Positions 3,997 through 62,574 of a stretch of 64,000 bases of DNA are shown piece after piece. The stretch is from a phage. The position numbers and the translations under genes were made by a program. The number at the start of each line of letters is the position of its first letter. Position 1 is the first letter of the stretch. The DNA lies in sequence record NC_101838.1, one strand, 5' to 3'. The notes beneath the pieces were generated by a model, which did no database searches, was not told the DNA's origin, and saw only the letters and a list, made by a program, of their open reading frames with translations.

Positions 3997-5037
3997 ATGT
4001 CAAAACCTAGTTTTCCATTAGAGATTTGGGCAGAGGAGGATCAGGTTCTGCCTAACACCCACAGACAGAACAGGCTACGCCCGATTGATGATTTGTGGAG
4101 AAAAGGTTGGGATCTTGGTCAAAAGCCCTCATGTGAAGAACTTAACTATATTTTCAATATGCTCGGAACTTGGGCAAAATACATTGCTGACGAGCAGATC
4201 CCCGCTCAAGAAGGCCGTTATCTGGTACGTGATAATAACTTGAGTGATCTTTTGAACATTCCTGTTGCCCGTAGAAACCTTGGGATTATTACTAAGGAAG
4301 AGGCAGACGCCAGGTATGTAAAAGTTACAGGTGATACAATGACAGGCCCATTGGGTTTGCAACGTATCAACTTTAAAGCTGCAGAGACAGATAAGGCTTG
4401 GATAGAGACAACTATTGGCCCAGATAAGACAACTCTCGACTTTGGGTTAAGTGATAATACTGGTTCGTTTGATGATGGTGGTACATCTACGGTAGATGCG
4501 TTTCGTTGGAGATTCCAGCCAACTCAGCCGGATATTAATCCAGAGTTCACTTTGATGTACCTTAACGCGATCACGGCTAACCGTGCGCTGTTGAAAGTGG
4601 TAGGCAATGTTGAAGTTGTCGATAACATGAGGTGCAATAACCTTACTATCAGCAATACAGCAACATTCACCAACTGTAATGTGGCTAGTCAGTTGACGGC
4701 TGGGTCAGTATATGTTAATGGTGGTGCAAGTTGTGACAGTATGGTTGTAAGAAGCCAGCACTGTGTTGTCGGTAACAGAAATGTGGTGCGCTCCGTGAAT
4801 GGAGTGACGGCTAACGGTAACGGTGATGTAACGATCACTATCCCGCAGACAGGTGTGCAAGACATCAGAATCGGTGCAAGACTTGTGGACGGCGTTTCTG
4901 AGTCTCCAATCCGCAACGGCTACGTTGTCACAGGCTGGCATTTCGGTGACAAAAAAGAGATGCGTGGTTCAACTTACTGGGCAGGACCTTTACAAAAACT
5001 TGTAAACGGTCAATGGATCACTGTTAATTATGCATAG
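3997..5037 (+). CDS. tail fiber protein, P2 gpH-like C-terminal domain
   Basis: C-terminus GWHF...LQKLVNGQWITVNYA resembles the P2 gpH tip (GWHF...IQKYINGTWYNV); conserved N-terminal PLEIWA...GW motif shared with the 6049 paralog; AGGAGA SD. Confidence 0.7.
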   Translation: MSKPSFPLEIWAEEDQVLPNTHRQNRLRPIDDLWRKGWDLGQKPSCEELNYIFNMLGTWAKYIADEQIPAQEGRYLVRDNNLSDLLNIPVARRNLGIITKEEADARYVKVTGDTMTGPLGLQRINFKAAETDKAWIETTIGPDKTTLDFGLSDNTGSFDDGGTSTVDAFRWRFQPTQPDINPEFTLMYLNAITANRALLKVVGNVEVVDNMRCNNLTISNTATFTNCNVASQLTAGSVYVNGGASCDSMVVRSQHCVVGNRNVVRSVNGVTANGNGDVTITIPQTGVQDIRIGARLVDGVSESPIRNGYVVTGWHFGDKKEMRGSTYWAGPLQKLVNGQWITVNYA

Positions 5038-5051
5038 ATCGGAGGACTAGC

Positions 5052-5636
5052 ATGAAAATACTCCAAGAGTTTAAACTTTACCAACCGGGATCTGGCGAAT
5101 ACCACGCCAACAAGGAAACCAAAGAGCTGACCCCTCAAGAGGTTGAGGACTACACCGCATACACTGGGTATTTTTTACGTAATGATGATGGCGATTGGTA
5201 TGTGCAGTCAAGAACATTACGACAAGAAAATCCGGGTTGTATCTTCCTACTTGTTGACGAAAAGGGAATTCTTAAGACATCTACAGAAGAACCTGATGCC
5301 TTATGGCCTGCTCCAGGTCTTCGTGTGGTTATCGCCAAAAAAGAAGAGGTACCAGAAAACATTATGCTTCACCACGACGCTTTGCGTTTAGTTGGTGATG
5401 AATTTGTCACAGACAATGAATTCTTTGTTCAACAGGCAGAGGGTGTCATAGAGACAGAACTTGCTTGGGCTACTGCTAGAATTGGTGCCTATCAAGACAT
5501 GATTGACCTTGAATATGATCTTACTGATGACCAGAAACGTAACATCAGAGATTTGAAAATGTACAGGGTAAAACTTCTTGAAATAGATACATCTAAAGCC
5601 CCTGACATTTTCTTCCCGGAGCGACCTACCCTCTAA
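5052..5636 (+). CDS. hypothetical protein, possible tail fiber assembly chaperone by position
   Basis: Immediately downstream of tail fiber gene; GGAGGA SD; no motif recognised. Confidence 0.4.
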   Translation: MKILQEFKLYQPGSGEYHANKETKELTPQEVEDYTAYTGYFLRNDDGDWYVQSRTLRQENPGCIFLLVDEKGILKTSTEEPDALWPAPGLRVVIAKKEEVPENIMLHHDALRLVGDEFVTDNEFFVQQAEGVIETELAWATARIGAYQDMIDLEYDLTDDQKRNIRDLKMYRVKLLEIDTSKAPDIFFPERPTL

Positions 5637-57339: not shown

Positions 57340-57612
57340 ATGTTAAGCTGGATTAACCAAGAAGTTGAATCACGTTTTAATGCTATTTGGGATCTCATCG
57401 AAAAAGAGGACGGAACATCAAGCCCTTATCTCAATAATCTTGAATTCCATTTCGTGGAAGCGATGAACGCAGAACATGATCACGAAGGTGGTGCGGATGA
57501 ATTCGCTAAAGGATATGGCTTCAACAATGCCAACGAAATGATCGAGGCGGTTGTACTCCAGGCTGAGGAAGATTATCAATTAAAAACGCTTGAATTCTGC
57601 CGCCGTAAGTAA
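57340..57612 (+). CDS. hypothetical acidic protein (90 aa)
   Basis: ATG after GAAGAGAGGAAAA within ORF 57256..57612. Confidence 0.5.
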   Translation: MLSWINQEVESRFNAIWDLIEKEDGTSSPYLNNLEFHFVEAMNAEHDHEGGADEFAKGYGFNNANEMIEAVVLQAEEDYQLKTLEFCRRK

Positions 57613-57674
57613 TAAGATAATGACACGGGCCAAAAGGCCCACTAAACAAAAACCACATAAAGAGGAAAAACATC

Positions 57675-57938
57675 ATGAAACGCCTTGATCAGCTCAAATT
57701 AGTTCAATATATGGCTTATCGTGTTCTTGAAGTCCAGAAAGGTAGCAAAAAAGAGGTTTGCGAGAAAGCTTATAAGATCTTCACTCGCAAAAAAGATGAC
57801 TGGATGCTGCGCCAGACTAAAAAGGCTGACATCTTGGGGTACCTGGAAGAAGAGATCCGCCTTGAAGAGCAAGAAGAGATCCGCCGTAGTGAGGCAGATT
57901 ATCAGGCAGCTTGGGAAAACTGGATGAGCAACAAATAA
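57675..57938 (+). CDS. hypothetical protein (87 aa)
   Basis: AAAGAGGAAAA SD. Confidence 0.5.
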   Translation: MKRLDQLKLVQYMAYRVLEVQKGSKKEVCEKAYKIFTRKKDDWMLRQTKKADILGYLEEEIRLEEQEEIRRSEADYQAAWENWMSNK

Positions 57939-58003
57939 TACAACAAGTTACGGTCAGGGGGTAATAAAGCCCCTTGATCACATAAAAATTATGCTATCCC
58001 TGG

Positions 58004-58032
58004 TTGACAGGGATCGGCAGTTTTGCTATATT
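58004..58032 (+). promoter_or_regulatory. sigma70-like promoter
   Basis: TTGACA - 17 nt - TATATT. Confidence 0.5.
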
Positions 58033-58081
58033 CTTTTTTGAAGGGAAGTTGTAAGAAAATTAACTAAGAGGTAAAAACACC

Positions 58082-58501
58082 ATGAACATTAAATCTAATA
58101 ATCCGGCATATAGCTTTGATAACGCTTTTTGTCACGGTCCGGCGGCGAAAGGATTCGAAATCGATGGTAAACTAATTATTGTCAATGTTGACGGGGAAGA
58201 GGTTGCAGTATATCCGGTGGCAGACGTAAAAAGCCGTTTACAATGCCGCATGGATGTTACCGCCTATCAGCTTGATCCGGTTCGCATAGTTGCCCTGGTC
58301 CTGGAAGAAGAAATTAAAGCCATGCACCATAGCAACAGGTTTATTGGTGACGCTCAGGATAATATGAAGGTGTGCCGCCATAAAGTTAATGAAGTGCTTA
58401 AAGAGTACGGCTATAAAGATCTTATGATCAAACGTGATGAAAAATTCCGCTACCGTAACGACCTGGCAAATCGGATTTTTGAAATATACGAATCATTATA
58501 A
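58082..58501 (+). CDS. hypothetical protein (139 aa)
   Basis: TAAGAGG SD. Confidence 0.55.
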   Translation: MNIKSNNPAYSFDNAFCHGPAAKGFEIDGKLIIVNVDGEEVAVYPVADVKSRLQCRMDVTAYQLDPVRIVALVLEEEIKAMHHSNRFIGDAQDNMKVCRHKVNEVLKEYGYKDLMIKRDEKFRYRNDLANRIFEIYESL

Positions 58502-58519
58502 TTTTTTAACTGAATTATC

Positions 58520-58545
58520 AAGGGGCTTAGCCCCTTTCTTTTTGT
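58520..58545 (+). terminator. intrinsic terminator ending the rightward small-gene module
   Basis: AAGGGGC-TTA-GCCCCTT followed by TCTTTTTGT. Confidence 0.6.
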
Positions 58546-59149
58546 CTGCTCTTCCCCCTACCATAAACGGCCCTACCTGGAAAGTGGAATAATTGACGAG
58601 CCATCAATCCCACACACTGTACAAACATACATGTAAAATAGCTATTGCATAACCTTTCATTGTGTGGTAGCGGTGCTATTTTTTACCAGTTTTCCTTCCA
58701 AAATTGCACGTAATGCAGCTATTGCATAAATTTTAACCTGATGCATATCTTCAATATCTTGTCAACAAATAAAAATTCTTATAAGTCATACACTTATACC
58801 CCCACAAAAGCGTTCTCTACGTGAAAAATCGGGCATAACTATAGCCGCCAGATCTCAGAATTTACGTACGCTCGCCATTCTATAGCCTGCTAAGTATTTA
58901 TTCCAACCATAGAATAATGGAATAGTCAATACCTGAATAAAATAATTATTCGTTTAAACTGCATAACATAAATCAGCTCAGGTGTCAACATTTTTCGTAA
59001 ACAGTCTTAAATTGTCACTGTGAGTTATCATAAACAGAGAAATCTTTAGTCGTCTAATGTTTACTGTACGTTACTATACTGACTGGAATCATTAGATGAC
59101 TAATAGAAAGATAAGAAATAATTAACGATACAATTATTTTACCTGTAAC

Positions 59150-59400
59150 AATAAGGCAACTATGCAAACGAATGGCATGGCGCGACGGAGTCGCGACATA
59201 ATATAAAAGCAGTAACCATCACCCCCGTGATAGTTTGTCTGCAAACTATTAATCAGATCATAGTTGCCTTGTATTTAGTTAATCATGACATAACAAGCAA
59301 GGCAACTATAGATCTTCTAATAGTTGCCCTGCTTTTATATTATGTCATGCTAATTATAATCAGTGCGATTATTGTCATGCAAACGAATGGCATGGCTTAT
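59150..59400. repeat. non-coding region of nested direct and inverted repeats
   Basis: 20-bp direct repeat ATGCAAACGAATGGCATGGC at 59162 and 59377; 18-bp inverted repeat GACATAATATAAAAGCAG at 59195 / 59329; GGCAACTAT in alternating orientation 4 times; palindrome CGCGAC-GGA-GTCGCG. Confidence 0.5.
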
Positions 59401-59458
59401 CATCTCTGTGTAAACAATCTATGCGTGAACAGTGAAACATGAAATAATAACAGTCGTT

Positions 59459-59515
59459 ATTGTGTCAAGTATTCCGATTGTGTCACCATTGTGTCTAAAG
59501 TGTCATATTGTGTCA
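59459..59515. repeat. iteron array: 5 copies of (T/A)TTGTGTCA at about 10-bp spacing
   Basis: TATTGTGTCA 59459, GATTGTGTCA 59477, CATTGTGTCT 59487, AAAGTGTCA 59497, TATTGTGTCA 59506. Confidence 0.5.
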
Positions 59516-60089
59516 GACAAGTTTTTCTCCTCTTTGTCAAGTGCTGCATGAAAAATTTACAAACTGGTATGGTAGCATTTTTGCGGACCTGTTTACATTC
59601 AGGAGTGTATGTATAATCCTTGTTGTGTGGGCGTTTATACGTCTGGACGGTCAGAAGTCTGCAGGTTAATATCTAATCTATTGGCTGCTAACTATATCCC
59701 ACACAAATGATAAGAAATATAATTGTTATATGCGTAAACTGTAACTCATGTTATCAATCCCTGTATGGATCGCCAGTGGTGCGCATAATGGGTATTATGT
59801 TAAATTGCCCGTAATGATAAAGGTTCTCACAATGATAGGTATTCTCATTCACCCTCACAAAATAGATTGCAAATGTTGTGCCACTGTGTGAACGGCCTCA
59901 CCTATTAATTTGCCTCACTGCCTCGATATTTGAGAATTATTATAAGAATGAGAAGTATTCCCATTCCGTCCGCCTGGCAGCACTCCTGTAGGTCCTGCAA
60001 GGACTCTAGCTTTCAGCTAGACCCTTCGGGCCTCCCTGTAGGTCAGGTCAAAATCGGGGTAGAATTGGGCCTATTCAGATATTTCTGGC

Positions 60090-60330
60090 TGACTCTTCAG
60101 GTCTGTGTGGGAAAAGCCAACCTCTCCGGCGGGGCAGGGGGATATCTGCGGGAAAATTGCAGGTCAATTAAAAAATTTACGTGGTATATGAAGCGCTCTT
60201 CAGGTAAGGCATGTATTATGGGATGAAACCCTCTTCAGGCAATGATATTTGTGGGTGTGATATTTGCTGGAAAGCCAGATATGACGGGACTCCCGGCGGG
60301 GCAGGGGTGGTACAGACAGGGAAAATATGA
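60090..60330. repeat. two degenerate tandem units carrying CTCTTCAGG and CCGGCGGGGCAGGGG motifs
   Basis: CTCTTCAGG at about 60095, 60197, 60232 (and 60645); CTCCGGCGGGGCAGGGGG at 60124 and CTCCCGGCGGGGCAGGGG at 60291. Confidence 0.4.
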
Positions 60331-61005
60331 AGGATGTGGTTGGGTAGATTGATCAGACAGGTAGAGTATGGAATATGTTACAAGTATGTTAAATATGGAG
60401 GTTGAATATCTGTAGGATTTGTGTGTAAAATCAAAGACTTAAGTGGTGTTGTGGTATTTTCTATAAATAATTCAAGTTTAATAGGCAATATTTGTCTCTA
60501 TCCGCTTTGTGTGGTAAACAGATTCAGATTAGATTGGTTTACAAGTGTATACATAATATACAAATTAAAGATACAAGAAACCCCCCCTCCCCCCTTCGGC
60601 TACCATTCACCTTTTCCTCTGACTGGTACTTAAACACTTATTCAGACTCTTCAGGTTATCACCCATATATCATATGGCAGTGACTGGTGTCCTCCGGCCC
60701 CTCTTTCGTCACCCGTCCGCTTCGCCATGCTAATGCCATAGCTAATGGTTCGGTTGTTCACCCTGTTCACTCAGGTGTATCTCTATACCCCTTCAAACCG
60801 AAGAGAACAGAAAACCCGAATTACTCGGTAAAAGAAAAGAGAAGAACTTAATTTTATCAGGATAGGCAAGAATGTCAAGGTATGACTGCTCACTAAACAA
60901 GCAAACAGTCATGTGTGGGAGGTAAGTGATTGTGGTGGTAGGAAATTTAGTTGAAAGATGTGTTATAGGTGCTTCCAGCACTTTAGCCGGGCAGCTAATT
61001 GTGTG

Positions 61006-61221
61006 TCAGTCCAGCGGTTCATCCTCTACTTCACTGAAATCAATGTTCATGGTCTCTTCCCAACCATCGATCTCAGCACAAGAGTGGAGTTCTTTAGGGT
61101 TTACTCCCAAAGCCTCAGCAACAGAGTCTATATTTAACACCTCTGGCAGGTATGATTCATCGAATTCAAGGTAAATCAGGCCACGAGTGTTGTCAGCTCC
61201 ACCAAATATCTCTATCTTCAT
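61006..61221 (-). CDS. hypothetical acidic protein (71 aa)
   Basis: GAGGAG SD upstream on minus strand. Confidence 0.45.
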   Translation of the reverse strand: MKIEIFGGADNTRGLIYLEFDESYLPEVLNIDSVAEALGVNPKELHSCAEIDGWEETMNIDFSEVEDEPLD

Positions 61222-61342
61222 AAAATCTCCTCTGGGAATGAAAGTGTGAACAGGGTTTTATACGTTCTAATGCACAGGAATTATACACGTTTGCCTCTTC
61301 AGGCCATGCTTTAGCATGAGGAACCTGTGTGGGCTCGGTGCT

Positions 61343-61555
61343 TCATAGTCTACCACCTCTGAACTCTTCGTGCTCAGGCATAATAGAGAACCAGATATCT
61401 ACGATGTCTTCCCACGTTAGGTCATCAGCCTCAGGATCTACCTGGAGCGAAGATGGAGAATCTTCAGAATCTAAGTTTTCCTCTTTCACTGGCTCAGCCA
61501 AGGGACATATAGTCACTCCTTTGGATGTCTCTTCAGATGCATGTGTGTTTATCAT
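61343..61555 (-). CDS. hypothetical acidic protein (70 aa)
   Basis: ORF track; start uncertain. Confidence 0.35.
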   Translation of the reverse strand: MINTHASEETSKGVTICPLAEPVKEENLDSEDSPSSLQVDPEADDLTWEDIVDIWFSIMPEHEEFRGGRL

Positions 61556-61687
61556 GTTCCACCCGTGAGTATTCCGGCAACAGCCGCTATGGACGTAATG
61601 ATCATCAGGATCACCACTAAAACTTCGGACAATGTTCTCATTGTGTACTCCATATTCTACAAACTATGTGTGGATACTATCACTGGA

Positions 61688-61723
61688 TCGGTAATGTGTC
61701 AACAGTCGGTAATGTGTCAACAG
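61688..61723. repeat. perfect tandem duplication of 18-bp unit TCGGTAATGTGTCAACAG
   Basis: Two adjacent identical units; core TGTGTCA shared with the 59.46 kb iterons; intergenic between leftward genes. Confidence 0.5.
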
Positions 61724-61933
61724 AAACGCCGCGAGGGTTTGGTTAAAATCCGAGCGTATGGTGATTTGGGTCAAAACGGACGTGCGTTCTCGCTACGCTC
61801 GAAATATGGAGTTGTTTGTAGGGAGCTCTTAAACGCTCTGTAATGAGATTAACTGCCCAAGGTATGCAATCGTGCACCAGATAAAGAAAAGGACGCCACA
61901 GAGCGTCCTAGGTGTCTTAAATTTGATATTTTG

Positions 61934-62245
61934 CTATACCCACGAGGGCTTATCAAGGTTGGAGTAGCTGAAAGGTGTCAAAAGGTGACTGTCAAAATCT
62001 CTCAAACTATCCAAATCTTTTTCCTCGTCCTGACACCATCTGTGCCTACATTTGTTGTTGTAGTGCATGGAATGCATAGCGTTCTGCAACTTAACAGGCA
62101 CAAGTGATTCAGGAGTAGATAGTATTGTTGGGTATGCCAGAACCACCTCAAACAGTGGAAACACATCGAAACTAAAGTCTACCTCTGCAGAGGTTGATGG
62201 CATGTAGGAGTATTTAGCCGCCTTTGTAGACATAATCCACCTCAC
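61934..62245 (-). CDS. hypothetical protein (103 aa)
   Basis: ORF track. Confidence 0.4.
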   Translation of the reverse strand: MRWIMSTKAAKYSYMPSTSAEVDFSFDVFPLFEVVLAYPTILSTPESLVPVKLQNAMHSMHYNNKCRHRWCQDEEKDLDSLRDFDSHLLTPFSYSNLDKPSWV

Positions 62246-62574
62246 ACAGGTTTGATAATACCTTCACCGAATAGCTCTTCGTATCTAATCTTGTCCGGAT
62301 CCCACTCCTGGATAATTTCGAAGACAATATCCAACCCAGGGACAATCACTTCTCCAGTGTCAAGCTTAGCAAGAACAAAACCGGAAGGTTGAATGGTTTC
62401 CCAGTTACGGCGATCAGAATAAAATACTTCGAAAATATCACCAACCTCAATCCGTTTCTGTTGCTCAAGATGCTCAAGGTTCTCTTTCATACGGATGCAG
62501 CGTATTTTTCGTGCAGGCCATAGACCACCTGCATCACGTTCATTCAATTCTTTTACAGTGATCGGTATACCCAT
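62242..62574 (-). CDS. hypothetical protein (110 aa)
   Basis: ORF track; 4-nt overlap with downstream gene. Confidence 0.45.
   Translation of the reverse strand: MGIPITVKELNERDAGGLWPARKIRCIRMKENLEHLEQQKRIEVGDIFEVFYSDRRNWETIQPSGFVLAKLDTGEVIVPGLDIVFEIIQEWDPDKIRYEELFGEGIIKPV

Follow-up and report, generated by a model that had tools for sequence, protein, structure and literature searches.

The gene-free zone at positions 58546–61005 of a 64,000-nucleotide stretch of phage DNA (NC_101838.1; the whole stretch is called the window) is best read as the genome-terminus, or concatemer-junction, region of a Vequintavirus, and likely as the packaging region of a genome with T7-type direct terminal repeats (DTRs). 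We put the probability of this reading at roughly 0.8. The zone and its flanks matched about 120–146 phage records at ~87–96% identity, nearly all of them Escherichia phages of the genus Vequintavirus (rV5-like myoviruses of ~137 kb), and the zone itself is kept at about 87–96% identity in ~120 Vequintavirus records; the source of the window is a Vequintavirus phage of E. coli. An initial annotation, made from the letters of the window, had suggested that the zone acts in cis, for instance as a terminus or packaging site of the genome, as an origin, or through structured RNA. The first of these is borne out by the read-based ends of phages LL12, Gotham, and EdH4/HdK5, all of which map to 59516–59974.

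The repeat is 459 bp long and occurs as a single copy in the window, as in a concatemer or circular assembly. Korf et al. 2019 reported "short terminal redundancies of 458 bp" for EdH4 and HdK5, and the records of both phages carry an exact 459-bp repeat at both ends, mapping to window 59516–59974. A 459-bp DTR was determined for LL12 with PhageTerm and was placed by its authors in a noncoding region between convergent transcripts; the published interval maps to the identical window bases. The Gotham announcement describes 459-bp terminal repeats with 2x coverage and a single fixed packaging start, and the Gotham record has a repeat_region annotated at 1–459. On window coordinates, these non-permuted 458/459-bp repeats from three laboratories coincide to the nucleotide, and at least 10 GenBank records of relatives open or close exactly at 59516 or 59974. 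The same sequence is thus present at both ends of the EdH4/HdK5 and Gotham genomes and once per unit in the window, and the ends of the relatives are fixed and non-permuted. At about 94–96% identity, the published repeats and that of the window are the same sequence with the same length, edges, and position between convergent gene blocks, and no difference at the sequence level sets them apart. A terminal repeat in a non-coding convergent zone was therefore already published for the genus in 2019–2020; those papers do not analyze the 2 kb around the repeat, nor the motifs at its edges or the palindrome considered below. Metagenome relatives (IMG/VR and JGI scans) amounted to only 2–3 contigs, none of which ended at a repeat edge. 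In the record of Escherichia phage I29 (ON286975.1), around the equivalent of ~59770–60370, a segment is duplicated in inverted orientation, the two copies meeting in a perfect palindrome (...CAGACAGGTAGAGTATG joined to CATACTCTACCTGTCTG...), and part of the terminal repeat then occurs a second time; this arrangement reflects either faulty assembly at the genome end or a rearrangement mediated by a hairpin.

The positions of the repeat edges coincide with motifs common to three genera. In Klebsiella phage KPP-1, a Mydovirus, coverage and PhageTerm established a DTR of 514 bp; both read-start pile-ups at the edges and about 2x coverage over the repeat are published for KPP-1, as they are for Gotham and LL12. 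The surroundings of the KPP-1 DTR are likewise poor in genes and bounded by convergent ones, a 2.2-kb stretch without genes occupies the equivalent place in PVP-SE1 (Seunavirus), and the KPP-1 zone is kept at 70–77% identity across Mydovirus and Seunavirus. The KPP-1 DTR aligned to that of the window in reverse orientation (z about 6 versus shuffles), the orientation also demanded by the flanking-gene homology noted in the PVP-SE1 record. An eight-way alignment of Vequintavirus, Mydovirus, and Seunavirus sequences gave a rule of two edge motifs: TGC(T/C)A with the edge before G(A/G)CGGAC(A/G), and CTTGACA-N17/18-TG(T/C)(T/C) with the edge before T(A/G)(A/G)C. The CTTGACA box of the second motif is invariant in the three genera, and its spacing to the TG(T/C)(T/C) that closes the right-end DTR is 18 nt in the window and 17 nt in Mydovirus and Seunavirus. 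The rule gave the window a repeat of exactly 459 bp and KPP-1 one of exactly 514 bp, and it predicts repeats of 514–516 bp in Mydo, KNP2, PVP-SE1, GAP31, and 4MG; the record of Klebsiella phage KP12 opens exactly at the predicted start.

An alignment of the locus from 18 phages, the basis of the conservation profile and of the coding tests, showed the DTR interior to be 0.91–0.97 identical and the most variable DNA of the locus to adjoin both of its edges. At one edge is a hypervariable array with five TTGTGTC(A) copies, four exact and one degenerate (AGTGTCA), the last of which stops exactly at the physical end (TTGTGTCA followed directly by GACAAG). In 59325–59508, 92% of columns vary, repeat number and sequence differing even among close relatives; the array is annotated as a repeat_region in the navn, naswa, and Alma records. 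At the other edge is an indel segment with small hairpins that only some of the relatives have, and 98% of columns vary in 59990–60045. A 33-nt element (ACGATTT..TTGACAAG..TTAT.TTT.TATG) is present in two copies in KPP-1 (4188–4220 and 5079–5111), one inside the terminal repeat and one just past the palindrome; both are conserved in Mydovirus and Seunavirus, and the element could be a promoter or binding site.

The zone is non-coding. Four flanking genes served as positive controls for the coding tests and all passed, with an excess at the third codon position (25, 4, 147; 21, 19, 131; 17, 9, 73) and with synonymous codon changes outnumbering the non-synonymous. In the 18-phage alignment, neither signal was given by any of the 26 zone open reading frames (ORFs) of at least 30 aa, most were broken in relatives, and the variable columns showed no 3-periodicity anywhere in the zone. 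A PHROG search with seven zone ORFs matched no family (0/7), which together with the failed codon-position and synonymous tests for every zone ORF rules out a protein-coding zone. ARAGORN found no tRNA or tmRNA, and Rfam 15 gave no family match, at gathering score or at E up to 1, for the window, KPP-1, and PVP-SE1 loci. The initial annotation had seen no convincing gene in 58546–61005 and was right in this; conserved coding frames in relatives and a lack of terminus signal, which it had named as grounds for dropping a cis-acting role, are the reverse of what was found. The zone corresponds to a grey "non-coding" box between genes 163 and 164 on the rV5 map of 2013, to which no function was assigned; the rV5 authors expected bidirectional terminators in the box and did not find them.

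The rightward gene block ends directly before the zone. The terminator that the initial annotation had placed at 58520 is present, as a hairpin and T-run forming the left border of the zone directly 3′ of the gene at 58082–58501, and the same terminator is annotated in the Alma, Murica, and EdH4 records. In the leftward block, the gene nearest the zone is at 61006–61221. Both bordering genes encode small proteins of unknown function and matched PHROG families of unknown function (E 1e-52 to 1e-96). The gene at 58082–58501 (+ strand, 139 aa, PHROG 12277), for which the Murica record notes a 'Rel homology domain', is missing from EdH4, HdK5, Alma, FV3, and APCEc02, where the zone adjoins the preceding gene directly; it is therefore a variable accessory gene beside the genome end.

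The description of the zone as AT-rich applied best to its left arm, with 34.8% GC; overall the bias is mild (39.6% vs 43.9% for the window), and 60046–60500 has 42% GC. The left arm is conserved (identity to relatives 0.83–0.96 per 50-nt bin). C exceeds G on its + strand, and 60046–60500 is strongly G-rich on that strand (skew +0.38). The zone was also said to be full of repeats, and these proved to be beyond chance: it has an 18-nt inverted repeat unique in 64 kb, 20-nt and 15-nt perfect direct repeats, the five-copy array, and clustered CTCTTCAGG (five copies in 60093–61295 and one more elsewhere in the window, both strands counted). CTCTTCAGG was considered as a promoter element and dropped, its spacing to −10-like hexamers differing by eye between copies. 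Across the whole window, TGTGTGG has 20 plus-strand and 12 minus-strand copies, versus ~4 expected per strand, with nine in 58.6–61.7 kb, and it often lies 5′ of CCTGAAG(A/T)G on the leftward-transcript strand, in the zone and in other genera. TGTGTGG/CCACACA was dropped as a DnaA box, all copies having a key-position mismatch and the motif being common inside genes across the window. The features of the zone are collected in Table 1.

Table 1. Features in and beside the non-coding zone, in window coordinates
Feature	Position	Strand	Description
Intrinsic terminator	58520–58545	+	7-bp GC-rich hairpin (58520–58536) plus T-run, AAGGGGCTTAGCCCCTT TCTTTTTGTC
Left arm	58546–59161		34.8% GC, C > G on + strand (skew −0.20), non-coding, conserved
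36-nt imperfect direct repeat	58622–58657 and 58699–58734		In left arm
20-nt perfect direct repeat, copy 1	59162–59181		ATGCAAACGAATGGCATGGC; brackets palindrome
Nested palindrome	59195–59346		Perfect 18-nt outer arms, GACATAATATAAAAGCAG / CTGCTTTTATATTATGTC
Second short hairpin within palindrome	59214–59235		
20-nt perfect direct repeat, copy 2	59377–59396		ATGCAAACGAATGGCATGGC; brackets palindrome
Hypervariable short-repeat array	59397–59515		Adjoins DTR edge; TGTAAAC/TGTGAAC-type units, period about 15–18
DTR, 459 bp	59516–59974		Single copy in window
Virion right end, by homology	59516		...CTTGACAAAGAGGAGAAAAACTTGTC
CTTGACA box	59541–59547	−	18 nt upstream of TG(T/C)(T/C) closing right-end DTR
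Virion left end, by homology	59974	minus-strand reading	GGCGGACGG...
Variable indel segment	59975–60045		Other DTR edge; bounded by CCTGTAGGTC duplication
Paralogous G-rich module, copy 1	60070–60163		TTCAG-type core (full CTCTTCAGG at 60093), TGTGG(G), AAAGCCA, CCGGCGGGGCAGGGG, GGGAAAAT
Paralogous G-rich module, copy 2	60230–60333		Found by local alignment of copies
Near-invariant 255-nt non-coding block	60590–60844	−	Predicted promoter start site to poly-C tract
Predicted near-consensus sigma-70-type promoter	60878–60851	−	TTGACA, 16-nt spacer, TAAAAT, upstream TG

The left flank of the repeat contains a large nested palindrome. Its outer arms (59195–59212 and 59329–59346) enclose a ~30-bp imperfect hairpin composed of four GGCAACTAT / ATAGTTGCC half-sites; in 20 shuffles, arms reached 14 nt at most. 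The fold z-scores of the two strands were −7.7 and −8.0. The palindrome is present in 117 records, in 116 of them at ≥95% identity, and its stems are invariant in 17 of the 18 aligned Vequintavirus sequences. Each Mydovirus or Seunavirus zone examined likewise has one outstanding perfect inverted repeat of 18–21 nt at the equivalent place, with arms 164–217 nt apart that enclose three mutually abutting hairpins without spacers. Changes in the arms are compensated (CGGGAG/CTCCCG, CTAGGG/CCCTAG, CGAGAG/CTCTCG; ACAATAA/TTATTGT vs ACTATAA/TTATAGT), and the inner hairpins covary too. In a covariation test, 98.6% of cells were paired over 53 pairs, and both-sided changes occurred in 9 of the 53 pairs, against 3.7 ± 1.3 in shuffles (0/500 reaching this value) and 0 in slid controls; with only seven sequences, these statistics are modest. 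The palindrome is a conserved base-paired structure. The outer arms of the Vequintavirus and KPP-1 palindromes differ at 6 of 18 positions, all compensated, and share the flanking context GTTAC...GTCGC; the proposed homology of the Vequintavirus palindrome to those of the other genera rests on this arm and flank similarity (GTTAC-arm-GTCGC) and on shared position. In the literature library searched, we found no description of the palindrome, and no papers on transcription, palindromes, or origins in the subfamily.

Single-strand origins of rolling-circle plasmids and complementary-strand origins of single-stranded DNA phages are imperfect multi-hairpin palindromes of 150–300 nt. In such origins shape rather than sequence is conserved, and they function on one strand, priming lagging-strand synthesis on displaced strands of small replicons. 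The palindrome may be likened to them in its multi-hairpin form and in keeping its shape over its sequence. It differs in that its strand asymmetry is based on a few G-T pairs, and we know of no such replication mode in this phage group. In the homologues, the strand equivalent to the window minus strand has G-T wobbles in 18 cells and no A-C cells, which hints that one specific strand folds. The outer arms are perfect and both strands fold equally, and a DNA-level hairpin or cruciform fits these observations at least as well as RNA.

The right flank carries two paralogous G-rich modules, a near-invariant 255-nt block, and a predicted promoter aimed leftward at the DTR. Given the + strand skew of the modules (+0.38), RNA transcribed leftward would be rich in C and poor in G. 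The promoter agrees with the consensus at 11 of 12 positions and is the best site in the zone, and its hexamers are conserved in the 18-phage alignment. The block that begins at its predicted start site has only 10 variable columns among the 18 phages, with invariant runs of 66, 45, 25, and 60 nt, the first 60 transcribed nucleotides being invariant. All 117 matching records had the block at ≥95% identity (55 at ≥99%), whereas 26 of 116 matching records fell below 95% over the adjacent 255 coding bases. A poly-C tract (60581–60589; C7 T C6 in the window) whose length differs among relatives forms the sharp distal end of the block. No homologue of the block was found in 5,426 E. coli genomes, and a host origin was rejected for this reason. 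The block may be a non-coding transcript or a protein-binding region.

The conservation of both flanks bears on whether the zone encodes a non-coding RNA (ncRNA), namely a ~255-nt minus-strand transcript from the 60878–60851 promoter, with the palindrome perhaps a second, structured RNA. An ncRNA locus is plausible for the right arm, where a near-consensus promoter with an upstream TG precedes a block that is invariant from its predicted start site, and the covariation of the palindrome and the wobbles without A-C cells on the minus-equivalent strand of its homologues count in favor. The lack of Rfam matches argues the other way, as do the absence of a clear terminator after the block and the weakness of its fold: z was −2.2 for the exact 255 nt, −1.4 for the minus strand of 60560–60845, and 0 for the plus strand. 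Structured RNA in the right arm was in general unpersuasive, with z-scores of −1.4, 0.0, −0.2, and +0.4 over both strands of 60560–60845 and 60060–60360. The outer arms of the palindrome are perfectly Watson-Crick paired in every genus, and together with the equal folding of both strands this is what a palindrome at the level of DNA typically shows. A literature search found no transcriptome of the phage group. As an account of the zone, we consider ncRNA a tentative possibility.

The zone might also be mainly a transcription buffer, a long terminator or insulator between converging gene blocks with no role in DNA ends. C-rich, G-poor composition is typical of Rho-utilization sites, and both arms have it on the strand of the incoming RNA: C and G are 23% and 14% on the + strand of 58546–59000, and 29% and 13% in minus-strand RNA of 60046–60500. 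There is, moreover, a strong intrinsic terminator at 58520–58545, and other genera have a conserved terminator-like hairpin after the last gene on the other side, with CCTGAAG, related to CTCTTCAGG, in its loop. But convergent terminators take tens of bases, not 2.5 kb, and a buffer would leave the read-based termini of relatives, the cross-genus edge motifs, the palindrome, and the zone-facing promoter unexplained. We therefore regard a mere buffer as rather improbable.

A replication origin with lambda-type or T7-type features, in the zone or in one of its arms, could exist alongside a terminus role. T7 origins consist of a promoter plus AT-rich DNA. The zone has an AT-rich left arm, the five-copy TTGTGTC-type array, multiple GGCAACTAT half-sites, a large palindrome, and an excess of promoter-like sites (26 vs 12.9 ± 3.9 in shuffles of 57500–62500). 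The rV5 paper describes a T7-like replisome (DNA polymerase A and a gp4-type primase-helicase), and its authors, searching for an origin by GC skew, obtained a turning interval (104425–105475) at this place, within which the rV5 copy of the repeat falls (104973–105431). That the interval contains the repeat also counts for the terminus reading. The authors themselves pointed out, however, that the skew turns where transcription changes direction. Iteron-type origins have several conserved, initiator-bound repeats of ~17–22 bp, an AT-rich unwinding element, and usually an adjacent initiator gene, whereas the repeats here are 8–9 nt or units of ~15–18 nt; the 8–9-nt motifs are hypervariable in number and sequence among phages >90% identical, unlike initiator-bound iterons, and no initiator gene is adjacent. 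Transcription also converges here rather than diverging, and no sequence feature separates an origin from a packaging region. An origin is, on balance, unlikely.

Several points weigh against the terminus reading. The ends of this particular phage's virion DNA are assigned by homology to its relatives, and the repeat covers only 459 of 2,460 bp, the arms having proposed roles. No sequence common to both cut sites was found, no clear promoter or terminator pair frames the palindrome, and the fold of the 255-nt block is only slightly better than that of shuffles. Alone among the 18 phages, FV3 (NC_019517.1) has none of the palindrome, the DNA between the ATGCAAACGAATGGCATGGC copies (equivalent to 59182–59396) being cleanly deleted; the phage may tolerate a true deletion, or the palindrome may have been lost in cloning or assembly, and in the former case it would be dispensable. 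Finally, the rV5 paper calls the genome circularly permuted, and PhageTerm gave 'circular permutated' for bovine Vequintaviruses and 'headful' for BpE1AUH. These calls would fit a circularly permuted genome packaged by the headful mechanism, with the zone only a pac site or unrelated to the ends and the 459-bp 'repeat' an artefact. Against this, the two edges came out alike, base for base, in three laboratories, coverage in Gotham was doubled and packaging began at one fixed point, and the independent determination in another genus (KPP-1) falls on homologous motifs. The rV5 statement was based on 3.6x Sanger coverage. Current versions of the bovine Vequintavirus records open exactly at the repeat. 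Automated packaging calls often miss short DTRs in transposase-made libraries. Headful packaging is accordingly very improbable here.

For the terminus reading, we propose the following mechanism. Virion DNA would be linear and non-permuted, with the 459 bp of 59516–59974 at both ends, and replication would yield concatemers in which each junction has a single repeat. Because replicated DNA and assemblies contain the repeat only once, the zone looks like an internal gap between converging transcription blocks. The terminase would recognize sequences in and beside the repeat and cut at two fixed positions, after TGGCA (59974/59975) and between TGTGTCA and GACAAG (59515/59516), and the repeat would be duplicated in the T7 manner so that each packaged genome receives a copy at either end. 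The ~1 kb on each side is proposed to be free of genes because it carries cis-acting DNA. This would include the short-repeat and indel arrays at both cut sites and, 170 bp past one of them, the palindrome, a candidate hairpin or cruciform with a part in duplicating the repeat, in priming, or in assembling the terminase. On the opposite flank, it would include the two G-rich modules and the 255-nt block driven by the predicted sigma-70 promoter facing the repeat. The C-rich, G-poor RNA that both arms give to incoming transcription may favor Rho-dependent termination before the junction.

The T7/T3 concatemer junction has a terminal repeat of 160/230 bp, short-repeat arrays (SRL/SRR), and the phiOR promoter reading into the junction, and duplication of the terminal repeat proceeds via a hairpin intermediate. 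By analogy, the zone may be compared to this junction in having a short exact DTR once per concatemer unit, fixed cut sites, short-repeat arrays beside the repeat, a promoter aimed at the repeat from the right-end side, and an inverted repeat nearby. The sequences are unrelated, however, and the repeat here is three times longer and the palindrome much larger and multi-branched. Genes converge on the ends here, whereas T7 transcription runs left to right, and the promoter is of host sigma-70 type, since, according to the rV5 paper, these phages do not bring their own RNA polymerase. The termini of phage N4, as summarized in PMC3896407, have a DTR of ~400–500 bp and inverted repeats, with hairpin priming at the 3′ ends. 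The DTR is thus of similar size, and inverted repeats are tied to end replication in N4; the N4 inverted repeats are at the extreme ends, whereas the palindrome is set 170 bp further inward than the inner edge of the left copy, ~630–780 bp from the physical end.

Two further observations concern the neighborhood of the zone and its database matches. A perfect tandem duplication of TCGGTAATGTGTCAACAG at 61688–61723 overlaps a strong minus-strand sigma-70-like promoter (61702–61674; TTGACA-17-TAGTAT with TG) upstream of small leftward genes. Over the zone, about 18–20 'Campylobacter phage' records (MG0656xx) share 85–95% identity with this group of E. coli phages; they are classified as Vequintavirus, the two examined are marked UNVERIFIED, and the host label is probably wrong or reflects contamination.

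The terminus reading settles a point left open by the rV5 map, the unexplained "non-coding" box and the statement on circular permutation, and it reconciles the contradictory packaging calls of later genome announcements. Vequintavirus, Mydovirus, and Seunavirus genomes are best opened at the conserved GRCGGAC motif, and the 459- or 514–516-bp repeat is then predictable from sequence alone. Exact ends are useful for genome engineering, rebooting, annotation, and judging transduction risk in therapy and food-safety phages, fixed-end packaging implying a low risk of generalized transduction. The length-predicting edge motifs common to several genera, the hypervariable edge arrays, the covarying palindrome, and the near-invariant promoter-driven block appear to be undescribed so far; the palindrome and the block are modestly novel leads, and the flanks provide two candidate cis-elements in a phage group with no known packaging signals. 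A more speculative proposal, which we advance tentatively, is that the palindrome is a cis-acting folded DNA or single-strand element shared by three genera, serving repeat duplication or the priming or organizing of ends, and that 60590–60878 is a second new element, either an ncRNA or a terminase-assembly site. If this is true, the palindrome and block together would define the packaging/maturation signal of a large group of therapeutic-candidate myoviruses.

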